A stretch of 64,000 nt of DNA from Escherichia phage vB_Eco_BCPEco_001: sequence record PV295200.1; one strand, 5' to 3'. Numbering within the stretch: the stretch's first letter is position 1; each line of letters begins with the position of its first letter. This document shows positions 58,680-61,550 of the stretch, piece by piece. A program made the position numbers and the translations under genes. The notes under the pieces were generated by a model. It saw nothing but the letters and a program-made list of their open reading frames with translations. It did no database searches and was not told the DNA's origin.

Positions 58680-59273
58680 ATGAACACACTGAAGAAAATT
58701 GTTGAGTTTATTCGCACTAAACTTGGTTCTGCAATGGCTAAAAATCTATCTGTTGAAGAACAGTATACTGCTGCAGCAGCAAAACTGCTTGATAAAATTA
58801 AAGACCTAAAAACTGCTTCTGTTAAATCTATTAATGAAGAAAAACGTATTCGTGAACTTATTGTTGAAAAGAATAAGCAGGCCGAATCAAAAGAGCGTGA
58901 AATTCGCAAGCTTCTTTCTGAAGGTCAAGATGTAACAATGCATGCTAAACTCGGTTTACTATATCGTCGAACAGCTGAGCAGTTGACTACTAAAGCTGAT
59001 GGTTATGCTGAAATGCGAATTGAAATCGCCAAGAAAGTAGTTGAGTTAGATGATGCTCGCCAAGAACTTGCAGTTAAATTGGAATATATCCGTGAAACTC
59101 GTGCTGCGAATGCCCTTGGAATTAGTACTGCTGATGATGTAGTTGAAATTGCAGCACTGACTAAAGTTGATATTGAAGATACTCTCGCCCGAGTTGAAAC
59201 CTTTAATGGCAATATTTCTGGGGTTGAAACTACCTCTGCCGATGTTCAGGAATATATTAATTCTCTGAAATAA
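58680..59273 (+). CDS. hypothetical coiled-coil protein (197 aa), PspA/IM30-like composition
   Basis: Long amphipathic helical heptad-rich sequence; hairpin downstream. Confidence 0.5.
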
Positions 59274-59314
59274 TGATAAGGGGCTTCGGCCCCTATTACT
59301 TGGAGTAAGTAGGA

Positions 59315-59923
59315 ATGAAAATGCAAAGTGATTTCAATTCAATGTTTGAAGAGTTCCAAAGGCAGGTTGATGTTCCAGACCAATTGCTAAATGCTCTTAA
59401 ACGTATGGCAGAAGGACGTAATTATTATTGGGGTTCTTCATATGAAACTGATGAAAGTCTTTCTGGAAGATTTTCCAGAGGTAAAAAGTCTTTAATACGT
59501 CCTGGAATACTTATTAACAGTATTGAATCAATTTATTCATTGACATGCGATTTTGATGTTGAATTTACTGATTTCATTTCTCCTGAATGGACAGTTTGTT
59601 ATTTAAACGACGATTTTGATTATCTCGGTGTTTATAGTTTAAGTGACGCATGGTTTAAACGTAACTTACAAAAGTCAAATTTATTCTATATTGATACTAC
59701 AGTAAAATTTCAGGGAAAGAAATATTTCTTTACTCTTATAGTTGATTCTGAAACGAAGCATGAAAATAAACGTATTCTTAGTAAAAAGAATATCTTAACT
59801 ATTGTTGATGATCTTTTTGATAAATTCGTGGAAAATCCCAGTTTTGAAAGCGATTTATTACTAGAAAAATTTGTGAAGGAATGCAGAGAATATGTCAAAG
59901 CCATCAATGTATCTTCCAAGTAA
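59315..59923 (+). CDS. hypothetical protein (202 aa)
   Basis: ORF; C-terminus carries FVKECR junction motif shared with the next three genes. Confidence 0.5.
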   Translation: MKMQSDFNSMFEEFQRQVDVPDQLLNALKRMAEGRNYYWGSSYETDESLSGRFSRGKKSLIRPGILINSIESIYSLTCDFDVEFTDFISPEWTVCYLNDDFDYLGVYSLSDAWFKRNLQKSNLFYIDTTVKFQGKKYFFTLIVDSETKHENKRILSKKNILTIVDDLFDKFVENPSFESDLLLEKFVKECREYVKAINVSSK

Positions 59924-60284
59924 ACCGTTGAAGTATGAATTAAAGCGCCAGCTAATTTCTACTGATGTATTAATAGGTCCTGTGGTAGCTGTATCATTTG
60001 TAATTCTACTGGGGGTTGGAATAATTATAGATGTTATGACTAATATTGAATCTAATGTAATATTTGCGTCAACACTAATTCTTCCAATGATAGTTCCATT
60101 TTTATTAGTACCTGTAAATTGGATAGGATACTGGTATCAAGGAAGGCATTATCGTAAACGCGTACGTGATTGGAAAGCACAGTGTAAAAAGATTAAAAAG
60201 GAACATCAGCTTAAACTTGCTGCGTATGAATTTGATGAAATTATGAAATTTGTTAAGGAATCACGATGCAAAAGCCAAAACTAA
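59892..60284 (+). CDS. small membrane protein (130 aa), paralog family
   Basis: Two hydrophobic helices, basic cytoplasmic tail ending FVKESRCK. Confidence 0.5.
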   Translation: MSKPSMYLPSKPLKYELKRQLISTDVLIGPVVAVSFVILLGVGIIIDVMTNIESNVIFASTLILPMIVPFLLVPVNWIGYWYQGRHYRKRVRDWKAQCKKIKKEHQLKLAAYEFDEIMKFVKESRCKSQN

Positions 60285-60628
60285 ATAAAGTCAAATATTC
60301 GCTTCCTGAGTCATTTTTAATTTTTGCTGTGGCGTTGGCTGCAGCTCTTGCGGGTAGTCTTTTTGGATTGTTAATTGACTGTCTTATTTTAAACATTGAC
60401 GGCACAGTAAATATAATAGAAGTTTGGAGTGAACTTTGTTATACTAAAATTATTTCATTATTTTCATTCTTTGGTACCATGTTATATTTTCATTATGATA
60501 ATTTTAAAATAAATTGGCAAAGAAAAAAAGATTACAAAATACAATTAAAAGAATATAATAGCTACATGTCTTATATTGAAAATGAGTCAATGAAAGAGTT
60601 TGTGAGTGATTGTAGGAAAATTAAATGA
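60266..60628 (+). CDS. small membrane protein (120 aa), paralog family
   Basis: Two hydrophobic helices, tail ending FVSDCRKIK. Confidence 0.5.
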   Translation: MQKPKLNKVKYSLPESFLIFAVALAAALAGSLFGLLIDCLILNIDGTVNIIEVWSELCYTKIISLFSFFGTMLYFHYDNFKINWQRKKDYKIQLKEYNSYMSYIENESMKEFVSDCRKIK

Positions 60629-61113
60629 TTTTAAAAACTCGCTGGTATGATTTAGATGATGGGGATGATGGCATTTCAGTTGATAGAGTTGACTGGAATG
60701 GTTGTTCCGAAGATATGAAAAATTTGTTGATTAGGGAGTTTAGAATGGGATATCAAGCAGCTAAGCCATTTACTGTAACAGATGATAAGTTCGTATGTAT
60801 TCAAAACGGTCGCGCTAAGTTAACGAACGCTGATTGGTTCACAGATAAAATTATGATTCTGTGGTATATTATTAGTCTTCCTGTGACATCATTCGTATTT
60901 TACTTTTTTATAAAAAATCCAATGGACAGAATAGGAGATTGGATTCTTTTAACCATACTTGTTAATATTTTTACAGCAGCAATATTATCTGGGATATGGT
61001 ACACGTTCATTGAAATGCCATGGCGGCTACGCAGACAACAAAAGATTTTTGATGAAAAGAAATACGTTCAAAATTTAAATAACTTTATCACTGAATGCAG
61101 GAAATTAAAATGA
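60625..61113 (+). CDS. small membrane protein (162 aa), paralog family
   Basis: Two hydrophobic helices, tail ending FITECRKLK. Confidence 0.5.
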   Translation: MILKTRWYDLDDGDDGISVDRVDWNGCSEDMKNLLIREFRMGYQAAKPFTVTDDKFVCIQNGRAKLTNADWFTDKIMILWYIISLPVTSFVFYFFIKNPMDRIGDWILLTILVNIFTAAILSGIWYTFIEMPWRLRRQQKIFDEKKYVQNLNNFITECRKLK

Positions 61114-61550
61114 AAACACTATCAGCTGGTATTATCTTTATGACAGAAGATAGAGATTTATTTATGGGTCGGGTTACTGGTTCTCGTAAGCCTGGAATGA
61201 TGGCACATCGCTGGGATATTCCAAAGGGCCGCGTAGAAAATTCTGATTTGAATGCACTGGAAGCTGCAAAAAGAGAATGCTTAGAAGAGACTGGCTTTAG
61301 CAATTATAATCCAGACCTTCTAGAAGACCTAGGTGTATTTAAATATTCTAGTAATAAAGACTTACAGTTATTTTATTATACGATTCCAGTAGAGCATGAG
61401 ATGTTTAGAAATTGTCGTTGCGAGTCTTATTTTGAAAATAAAGATGGTGTTATGATTCCAGAGATGGATGCTTTTGCTCTTATTCCTCGTATTCAGTGGC
61501 AATATGTGATGGGTCCTTCACTTTACCGAATAATGAACAACCTCTTTTAA
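61095..61550 (+). CDS. nudE: Nudix hydrolase NudE
   Basis: 151 aa, Nudix box GRVENSDLNALEAAKRECLEETGF, immediately upstream of e as in T4. Confidence 0.8.
   Translation: MQEIKMKTLSAGIIFMTEDRDLFMGRVTGSRKPGMMAHRWDIPKGRVENSDLNALEAAKRECLEETGFSNYNPDLLEDLGVFKYSSNKDLQLFYYTIPVEHEMFRNCRCESYFENKDGVMIPEMDAFALIPRIQWQYVMGPSLYRIMNNLF

Follow-up and report, generated by a model that had tools for sequence, protein, structure and literature searches.

Among T-even phages, a short terminal peptide that recurs on otherwise dissimilar proteins has precedents. The internal head proteins carry an N-terminal capsid targeting sequence (CTS), MKTYQEFIAE, which is cleaved by the gp21 protease, and in T4 the proteins gp43, gp33 and gp55 end in similar C-terminal tails that dock onto the gp45 sliding clamp. 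Here, we describe such a peptide at the C-termini of four consecutive small genes, e.5, e.4, e.3 and e.2, located in a 64,000-nucleotide stretch of the genome of Escherichia phage vB_Eco_BCPEco_001 (sequence record PV295200.1; this whole stretch is referred to below as the window). The chances are about even (a probability of roughly 0.5) that this tail, which appears to be selected, dual-coded and recombining, is a docking helix through which the four proteins bind a common cytoplasmic partner or associate with each other.

Like the CTS, the tail is a short conserved peptide at one end of unrelated or fast-changing bodies, and both map to the same plastic portion of the T-even genome. The CTS, however, is N-terminal, belongs to late head proteins and is removed proteolytically, whereas the e.5–e.2 tail is C-terminal, belongs to early cytoplasmic or membrane proteins and doubles as the ribosome-binding site of the next gene. 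A CTS-type sequence (MKTYNEFIAES...) is present in locus L009 (4881–5192), and the FIAE of the Gaprivervirus e.5 tail (locus L004, 2955–2966) is identical to the F-I-A-E core of the CTS. The T4 prohead protease has the consensus L/I-x-E, which the tail core F-[IV]-x-E (59870–59881 and 61084–61095) fits; this may be a coincidence. The gp45-binding tails set the T4 precedent for unrelated proteins that use a similar short C-terminal peptide for one partner, but their sequence is unrelated to that of the e.5–e.2 tail.

PeSLs are another known kind of short repeat at gene boundaries; in hyperplastic regions, genes come, go or are exchanged at them by recombination. They lie between genes and combine a strong sigma-70 promoter with a terminator hairpin (PMC2839356). 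In contrast, the e.5–e.2 junctions are coding and have no hairpin, and the promoter-like matches of the region are not above chance. The pairs e.3/e.2 and e.2/nudE overlap as ATGA with the Shine–Dalgarno (SD) sequence located in the upstream gene, an arrangement found in 40 other pairs of this genome, but a conserved peptide common to four consecutive genes is found only at the e.5–e.2 junctions. The T4 superinfection-exclusion proteins Imm and Sp are likewise small early membrane proteins; they have no sequence similarity to e.5–e.2 (best blastp E = 0.4) and lack the tail motif. The locus is a tandem accessory-gene cluster, with translation that is probably coupled, set apart by a portable, selected C-terminal peptide at the gene junction. 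The genes themselves are known open reading frames (ORFs), but the shared tail on T4 e.5–e.2 has apparently not been described before: a literature search, the coverage of which did not extend to the T4 review of Miller et al. (2003), returned no function for e.2–e.5 and no mention of a shared tail.

A C-terminal peptide common to four adjacent early genes

Region 59200–61200 of the window is 100% identical at the DNA level to Shigella phage SHFML-11 (Tequatrovirus) and 90–98% identical to about 500 other T4-like phages. The four ORFs are named according to the annotation of RB14 and T4, both of which have the same gene order, and their products are 90–94% identical to the T4 counterparts. A first-pass annotation of the window had given ORF coordinates and C-termini that match exactly on re-reading. 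It had suggested a comparison with the T4 e region, and superinfection exclusion or host-membrane modulation as candidate roles of the small membrane proteins, without recognizing that these ORFs are T4 e.5–e.2 themselves. Together with nudE they form an overlapping early chain (e.5, e.4, e.3, e.2, nudE) with one soluble and three small inner-membrane proteins.

The tails read ...EKFVKECREYVKAINVSSK in e.5, ...MKFVKESRCKSQN in e.4, ...KEFVSDCRKIK in e.3 and ...NNFITECRKLK in e.2. Their common consensus is [L/I/M]-x-x-F-[I/V]-x-E-C-R-[K/E], with Ser, Ile or Val replacing Cys in e.4. The core is shared by all four genes as had been proposed, but the form F-x-x-E-C-R-K is literally present in e.2 only: e.3 has Asp for Glu, e.5 has Glu for Lys and e.4 reads S-R-C-K.

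The pattern [ED]CR[KE] occurs three times in the six frames of the window, each time at one of these C-termini. The rest of the 170 kb genome (from SHFML-11) was then added and all six frames were scanned. The only long ORFs with F[IV]x[ED]x[RK] no more than 25 residues from their end are these four genes, against an expected count of 0.2–0.55 (P = 5e-5 to 2.5e-3). For the strict Cys form the expected count is 0.006 and three are observed (P = 4e-8), and the chance of four random genes being consecutive is about 1e-6. In 172 kb of related loci 43/43 motif hits near ORF ends belong to orthologues of e.5, e.4, e.3 or e.2, with no false positives. Chance is excluded as the source of the shared tails.

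Each of the four genes was found by tblastn in about 530–680 records among 50,697 phage genomes. These are mainly Tequatrovirus together with a distant group of less than 60% identity which, where loci were read (ST0, CJ20, VR7, IME341 and KLB31), comprises Mosigvirus, Gaprivervirus and Dhakavirus, and for e.2 also Kanagawavirus. The tail is kept in orthologues from five genera at 22–45% overall identity. In e.5 it reads FIMECREY in Mosigvirus and FIAECREY in Gaprivervirus and Dhakavirus, in e.4 FVKEIRCK in Mosigvirus and FIKEVRNGTA in Gaprivervirus only, and in e.3 FIKECRK-stop in Mosigvirus and FIKECKS-stop in Gaprivervirus and Dhakavirus; none of these three was seen in Kanagawavirus. The e.2 tails are FIEECRK-stop in Gaprivervirus and Dhakavirus and FIKGCRDGSN-stop in Kanagawavirus. 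A profile of 20 tail sequences has Leu, Ile, Met or Ala at position −3, Phe at 0 (20/20), Ile or Val at +1 (20/20), Glu at +3 (17/20), Cys at +4 (15/20; the five tails without it are all e.4) and Arg at +5 (18/20). Within Tequatrovirus, the F, D, C, R and K of the e.3 tail are invariant in 36 cluster representatives, and the transmembrane segments vary.

A homologous-protein search with e.3 returned Tequatrovirus e.3 relatives only; that with e.5 returned Tequatrovirus relatives and one cluster representative at 46% identity. With a joint e.3 and e.4 profile, an exhaustive hmmsearch of 1.84 billion representative proteins gave six clusters, all of them T-even e.3 or e.4, which argues that the e.3/e.4 family is confined to T-even coliphages. 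A DNA-pattern scan of IMG/VR for TTTATTNNNGAATGYMGNAAATGA gave 14 matches, of which 11 are e.2 or e.3 orthologues and three are chance.

Dual coding and recombination at the gene junctions

When 16 tails from five genera are aligned by codon, Phe is encoded by TTT or TTC, Cys by TGC or TGT, and Arg by AGA, AGG, CGT, CGC or CGA. This synonymous turnover at conserved residues argues for selection acting on the amino acids, so that the tail is probably conserved as a peptide and not merely as DNA.

The x-E codons of most tails read AAGGAA or GAGGAA, 6–11 nt ahead of the next ATG. In e.3 and e.2 of the window these codons are AGTGAT and ACTGAA, and the SD sequence is instead AGGAAA, formed by the R-K codons. 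The tails of these two genes are two codons longer (CRKIK-stop and CRKLK-stop versus CRK-stop), by which the 7 nt spacing is restored. The position of the SD sequence co-varies with tail length, CRK-stop going with AAGGAA and CRK[IL]K-stop with AGGAAA. As read from the alignment, 20–25 nt of each tail would also serve as the translation-initiation region of the next gene, which would make each tail a dual-coded junction. The codon alignment and the ATGA-pair control described below thus bear out the earlier idea of the junction as a translation site, and the DNA consensus that had been given for it was partly right: it is a ribosome-binding site overlaid with a protein motif.

The overlaps along the chain from e.5 to nudE are 32, 19, 4 and 4 nt. 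The next ATG had been said to overlap or abut the stop codon at each junction. This holds for e.3/e.2 and e.2/nudE (ATGA), but at e.5/e.4 and e.4/e.3 the ATG lies just past or within the motif and the upstream ORF continues for 32 and 19 nt, respectively. The operon features seen are the stop/start overlaps and an SD sequence inside the upstream ORF, 6–11 nt before each ATG; no terminator separates the genes. From the overlaps we infer translational coupling of the five genes e.5–nudE. RNA folding of the five junctions gave no structure above shuffles (z-scores of −0.7 to +1.4) and no hairpin, and a promoter scan of the region gave 23 matches, no excess over the 18.7 ± 4.1 obtained in shuffles.

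The motif could alternatively be the mere translated image of a conserved ribosome-binding region (U/A-rich leader, SD sequence, A-rich spacer and ATGA overlap), with a peptide that has no role. The AAGGAA or GAGGAA of the x-E codons, 6–11 nt from the next ATG, agrees with this, and 15 of the 42 ATGA-coupled gene pairs in the genome end in Lys, so that the terminal [I/L]-K is generic. Likewise, an unrelated 68-residue ORF in the tk region of SHFML-11 (locus L026, 6532–6738, − strand, outside the window) ends in ...PDFVKEGKPK-stop over an ATGA junction with the SD sequence AAAGAAGGT; V-K-E and a terminal Lys can therefore come from ribosome-binding-site coding alone. Yet Cys and Arg stay while their codons change synonymously, including AGA to CGT, and Glu is retained where the SD sequence lies elsewhere (ACT GAA, GCT GAA). 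The F-[IV]-x-E-C-R core is present in e.3 and e.2 only and in 0/40 of the other ATGA junctions, and the junction RNAs have no special structure. The codon data largely exclude this explanation, which we regard as very unlikely.

The least probable of the explanations considered is a cis effect of the tail as nascent peptide, by which it would slow the ribosome at the junction and promote re-initiation on the overlapping start codon. Conservation at the amino-acid level would agree with this, as would the position of the next ATG, which in 16/16 junctions lies at, or no more than 9 nt after, the motif Arg codon. However, the ribosome continues beyond the motif by 10 codons on e.5 and by 5 on e.4, a ribosome that paused would mask rather than expose the downstream SD sequence, and the tail is not known to resemble any arrest peptide.

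Of the direct repeats in the 2 kb region, the longest pairs the e.5 tail with that of e.2 (30 nt, 70% identity), and the e.5 and e.4 tails have 15/16 nt in common. The two junctions of Gaprivervirus CJ20, GCTAAAGGGGTTCATAATGCGAACG at e.5/e.4 and ATTAAGGAGGTTCGTAATGGAACGG at e.4/e.3, are alike both before and after the ATG. In Dhakavirus IME341, from which e.4 is missing, e.5 and e.3 meet in GCTAAAGAGGTTCAAAATGGAACGG; the left part of this junction is like e.5/e.4 and the right part like e.4/e.3, and it encodes the chimeric tail FIAECREYAK/EVQNGTA-stop, where the slash marks the joint. A second e.4-less form is present in an IMG/VR genome. Because Dhakaviruses without e.4 carry this hybrid of the two Gaprivervirus-type junctions, the junction repeats probably act as recombination substrates by which gene bodies are removed, added or swapped, and the suggestion of the first-pass annotation that the junction is a recombination site gains comparative support.

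Further natural variants are found. VR7 has no e.5. In Dhaka- and Gapriverviruses about 4 kb separate e.2 from e.3, and the gene after e.2 is a different one. A very acidic, conserved 78-residue ORF that is ATGA-coupled to e.2 lies between e.2 and nudE in these phages (L006, 1992–2228; L007, 4492–4728) and is absent from the window. Some IMG/VR e.2 genes (L017 and L020) are mosaics with a Dhakavirus-type N-terminus and a Tequatrovirus-type C-terminus. The full e.2 of 162 residues is present in the window, in RB14 and in most relatives. In the T4 reference e.2 is truncated to 102 residues by a 1 nt deletion in an A6 run (L002, 3615–3695, corresponding to 60880–60960 of the window), and the second membrane helix and the tail are lost.

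These same data fit a motif that is a passive relic of tandem duplication, homogenized by gene conversion, in which the repeats persist through cassette shuffling and the peptide is neutral. We consider this unlikely, but it remains the main rival. It is in line with the paralogy of e.4 and e.3 (see below), with the similarity between junctions e.5/e.4 and e.4/e.3, which extends to either side of the ATG, and with the Dhakavirus hybrid junction. Same-clade paralogue tails are as alike (12.7/18 nt) as cross-clade orthologues (12.4/18), and the Arg codon class (AGR or CGN) and the choice of Val or Ile follow lineage across paralogues (hand-calculated hypergeometric p of about 0.02, for which lineage codon bias is a possible cause). 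Against it, the repeats are just 16–30 nt long and 70–94% identical, and the tails of one genome differ at synonymous sites. The motif also survives where the rest of each protein is at 22–33% identity, and on an unrelated e.5 body; over such divergence a neutral sequence would have decayed.

Gene bodies, membrane topology and the proposed docking helix

Smith–Waterman scores compared with shuffles gave z = 3.9 for e.4–e.3 and for e.3–e.2, 2.4 for e.4–e.2 and about 0.6 for e.5 against any of the others. Profiles built from orthologues of 3–5 genera were also compared with hhalign, the control being columns shuffled within each architectural segment. The e.4 and e.3 profiles match with a probability of 88% (P = 3e-6), colinear over 115 columns, a score reached by 0/200 of the segment-shuffled controls; minus the tails, the match is colinear yet weak (P = 0.004). 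The two proteins have in common N-W...R-K-x-x-D-[YW]-K-x-Q after the second helix and an M-x-K-P N-terminus, and e.3 matches the PHROG of e.4 at E=0.024. They are most probably a duplicated pair.

The e.3–e.2 profile match (P = 1e-5 to 3e-6) is confined to 19–21 tail columns and the matches of e.5 to 7–19 tail columns. With tails removed, all hhalign pairs with e.2 or e.5 become non-significant (P=0.03–0.8). By this measure e.2 seems to share the architecture and the tail only, and the e.5 tail would be a module attached to an unrelated, or at least unrecognisably diverged, body. Between the T4-type e.5 and its positional equivalent in Gaprivervirus and Dhakavirus, only F-[IV]-x-E-C-R-E-Y-[AV]-K is common (blastp, 16–24 residues), and without tails the T4-type and Gaprivervirus-type proteins give an hhalign P of 0.2. 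The tail thus appears to be portable, being present on two unrelated 'e.5' bodies, which is a further sign that bodies are swapped at the junctions. Of the tandem-duplication family of four that had been proposed, e.4 and e.3 stand as full-length relatives, but e.2 (about 20 tail residues) and e.5 do not. For e.5 similarity stops at the short tail, which the first-pass annotation had itself named as the outcome refuting paralogy.

Two hydrophobic helices are present in e.4, e.3, e.2 and all of their orthologues, and none in e.5. The Kyte–Doolittle peaks (17-residue window) are 2.1–2.8 in the three proteins, the second helix of e.3 being weaker (1.45). The termini are rich in Lys and Arg, the loops are acidic or neutral and the cytoplasmic C-tails contain 9–15 Lys plus Arg. 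From this charge distribution (positive-inside rule) an N-in/C-in topology is predicted, with a cytoplasmic C-terminal domain of 33–56 residues and all tails in the cytoplasm. In the AlphaFold2 (AF2) model of e.3 (predicted local distance difference test, pLDDT, of 71) a helix spanning residues 13–45 is followed by a long helix, 50–118, that runs from the second membrane segment through the tail; the last 30 residues are its most confident part (pLDDT 81–88). Hydrophobicity profile, charge bias and the e.3 model support the earlier description of the last three genes as two-helix membrane proteins of one architecture. In the AF2 model of e.5 the tail falls in a terminal helix, residues 181–196, at low confidence.

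Drawn as a helix, the tail has Leu(−3), Phe(0), Ile/Val(+1) and Cys(+4) on one face and Glu(+3) and Arg(+5) on the opposite one. Its hydrophobic moment is 0.3–0.6 and its mean hydrophobicity is negative. A C-terminal position, predicted helicity and moderate amphipathicity would suit a membrane-surface helix like the targeting sequences of MinD and FtsA, which would bring e.5 to the membrane and lay the e.2–e.4 tails on the bilayer. We find this quite improbable, since besides the negative mean hydrophobicity the hydrophobic face comprises 4–5 residues only, an invariant acidic residue lies within the motif and the tail of the e.3 model ends a cytoplasmic helix of about 40 residues directed away from the membrane. 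As modelled, the tail helix fits a protein–protein contact better.

The Cys-Arg pair might alternatively be a chemical site, either an intermolecular metal or redox centre to which several tails contribute or the target of a covalent modification such as ADP-ribosylation. The Cys is found in 15/20 tails and is always followed by Arg or Lys, and in Tequatrovirus the overlapping chain ends with nudE, the product of which, a Nudix hydrolase, acts on ADP-ribose. But e.4 has Ser, Ile or Val at this position, the tail has no second ligand-like residue and the helical Cys would lie on the hydrophobic face with Leu, Phe and Ile/Val. Moreover, in Dhaka- and Gapriverviruses e.3 is away from nudE and another gene lies between e.2 and nudE. 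A chemical role is in our opinion improbable.

We return to the docking helix. Dissimilar early proteins would bind one cytoplasmic partner, or each other, through the tail peptide, and the soluble e.5 would in this way be tethered to the membrane proteins e.4, e.3 and e.2. Because e.5, e.4 or e.2 are each absent in some natural phages, we favour a partner shared by partly redundant proteins over an obligate complex of four subunits. A more specific and less probable version is that the tail is a portable C-terminal address peptide, the cytoplasmic equivalent of the CTS, on interchangeable early proteins, unrelated soluble bodies among them, which it would direct to a single target, of host or phage origin, at the inner membrane. 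If so, swapped-in bodies would gain expression and targeting in one step, because the DNA of the peptide is also the start signal of the next gene and the recombination site.

In a published T4 study, the RNAs of e.2–e.6 and nudE are early and the protein of each is detected (PMC9697503). Several points speak against a docking role. The AF2 model of e.5 has low confidence overall (pLDDT 56). Since e.4 has no Cys at the motif position, this residue is not a universal requirement. The ribosome-binding site explains the K-E and terminal Lys residues at least in part, and the tail comparisons give a hint of some gene conversion among junctions, an alternative to independent selection. In a CRISPRi-ART survey, which lists the prior essentiality of T4 e.2–e.6 as unknown, the knock-downs of these genes scored 'Not Fit', read as no detectable fitness effect (PMC11879866). 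Taken with the truncated e.2 of the T4 reference, this argues that any function is accessory.

Feature map, neighbouring genes and significance

The features of the locus are collected in Table 1. The position of e.5–e.2 is conserved in the RB14 and T4 annotation, with e.6 upstream and nudE and the lysozyme gene e downstream. Full-length profile matches assign e.5 to PHROG 2607 (E=5e-108), e.4 to PHROG 2604 (E=3e-69), e.3 to PHROG 2330 (E=8e-60) and e.2 to PHROG 2203, 'membrane protein' (E=2e-78); no function is assigned to any of the four. The UniProt entries for T4 e.5, e.4, e.3 and e.2 are P39223, P39222, P32274 and P32273, and database labels are 'conserved hypothetical' or 'predicted membrane protein', split over four families. 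Pfam-A and NCBIfam gave nothing significant for the four window proteins; relatives of e.5 carry the precomputed Pfam PF26876. A match of e.4 to the NCBIfam Bfi1 family immunity protein (E=1e-3, 19 bits, the cut-off being 100) spans both membrane helices, is probably compositional and was rejected.

Table 1. Coordinates of genes, tail modules and signals from e.6 to nudE (positions in the window; TM, transmembrane).
Feature	Position	Strand	Description
e.6	58680..59273	+	197 aa, coiled-coil-like, soluble; no tail motif; RB14/T4 annotation, PHROG 1203
GGGGCUUCGGCCCC hairpin, UUCG tetraloop	59279..59294	+	Between e.6 and e.5; terminator-like call of the scan is on the − strand
e.5	59315..59923	+	202 aa, soluble, no hydrophobic segment; RB14/T4 annotation, PHROG 2607
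e.5 tail module L-E-K-F-V-K-E-C-R-E	59861..59890	+	e.4 start codon next, at 59892
Candidate SD for e.4, AAGGA	59876..59880	+	K-E codons of e.5 tail; 11 nt before ATG; read from sequence
e.4	59892..60284	+	130 aa; TM helices ~30–46 and 56–73; basic cytoplasmic C-terminal domain; 32 nt overlap with e.5
e.4 tail module I-M-K-F-V-K-E-S-R	60240..60266	+	Degenerate, S replaces C; e.3 ATG (60266) begins in last base of Arg codon
SD for e.3, AAGGA	60255..60259	+	K-E codons of e.4 tail; 6 nt before ATG
e.3	60266..60628	+	120 aa; strong TM helix 17–44, weaker 57–78, then long cytoplasmic helix; 19 nt overlap with e.4
e.3 tail module M-K-E-F-V-S-D-C-R-K-I-K-stop	60590..60628	+	ATGA overlap onto e.2
SD for e.2, AGGA	60614..60617	+	R-K codons AGG AAA; 7 nt before ATG
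e.2	60625..61113	+	162 aa; N-terminal soluble domain of ~75 residues; TM helices 76–92 and 107–124; basic cytoplasmic tail
e.2 tail module L-N-N-F-I-T-E-C-R-K-L-K-stop	61075..61113	+	ATGA overlap onto nudE
SD for nudE, AGGA	61099..61102	+	R-K codons AGG AAA; 7 nt before ATG at 61110
nudE, Nudix hydrolase	61110..61550	+	Last gene of chain; no tail motif; Pfam NUDIX E=5e-13, RB14 annotation

The hairpin between e.6 and e.5 has no T run after it on the + strand, so an RNA-stability or processing element is more likely than a terminator. For nudE, the start annotated in T4 is the ATG at 61095 (MQEIKMKTL..., 151 residues), which falls within the tail codons of e.2 and precedes the AGGAAA SD sequence. 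The ATG at 61110 chosen in RB14 (146 residues, ATGA overlap, SD sequence 7 nt upstream) is the more likely start.

The identity of e.6 across genera is 74–88%, far above that of e.5–e.2, and the protein has the appearance of a long coiled coil. Its assignment as a PspA/IM30-like protein of a psp-like cluster was considered and rejected: the blastp match is colinear and weak (E=0.03, with an approximate E. coli PspA query), with no PDB-profile or Pfam support. In the N-terminal cytoplasmic domain of e.2, residues 9–17 (60649–60675) belong to a conserved acidic stretch, W-x-x-L-D-D-G-D-x-G-I...(V/I)-D-W-x-x-C, which is at 37–50% identity across genera (orthologues in L006, L007 and L009), the rest of the protein diverging. 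After e.3, Mosig-, Gapriver- and Dhakaviruses carry between one and five small soluble ORFs in tandem, of 65–101 residues (L003, 3731–4527; L004, 3691–4752; L005, 3562–4821; L008, 4896–5186; related loci outside the window). All of these end in W-x-[SNP]-S-S-x-x-C-stop (WVSSSAMC, WVSSSYEC, WFNSSMTC, WYPSSC), a second tandem family with a conserved, Cys-bearing C-terminus.

T4 has more than 100 genes of unknown function, and e.2–e.6 are among those without any lead. If the tail is neutral, the locus is a diverged tandem cluster with ordinary translational coupling. A peptide that is common to four adjacent early proteins and is kept when the body is replaced would offer a handle on their common partner and on the pathway of the cluster. 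About 25 nt appear to be in triple use, as protein motif, ribosome-binding site and recombination junction, and this would show one way in which accessory genes in the plastic regions of phage genomes can duplicate, swap and vanish without loss of expression.

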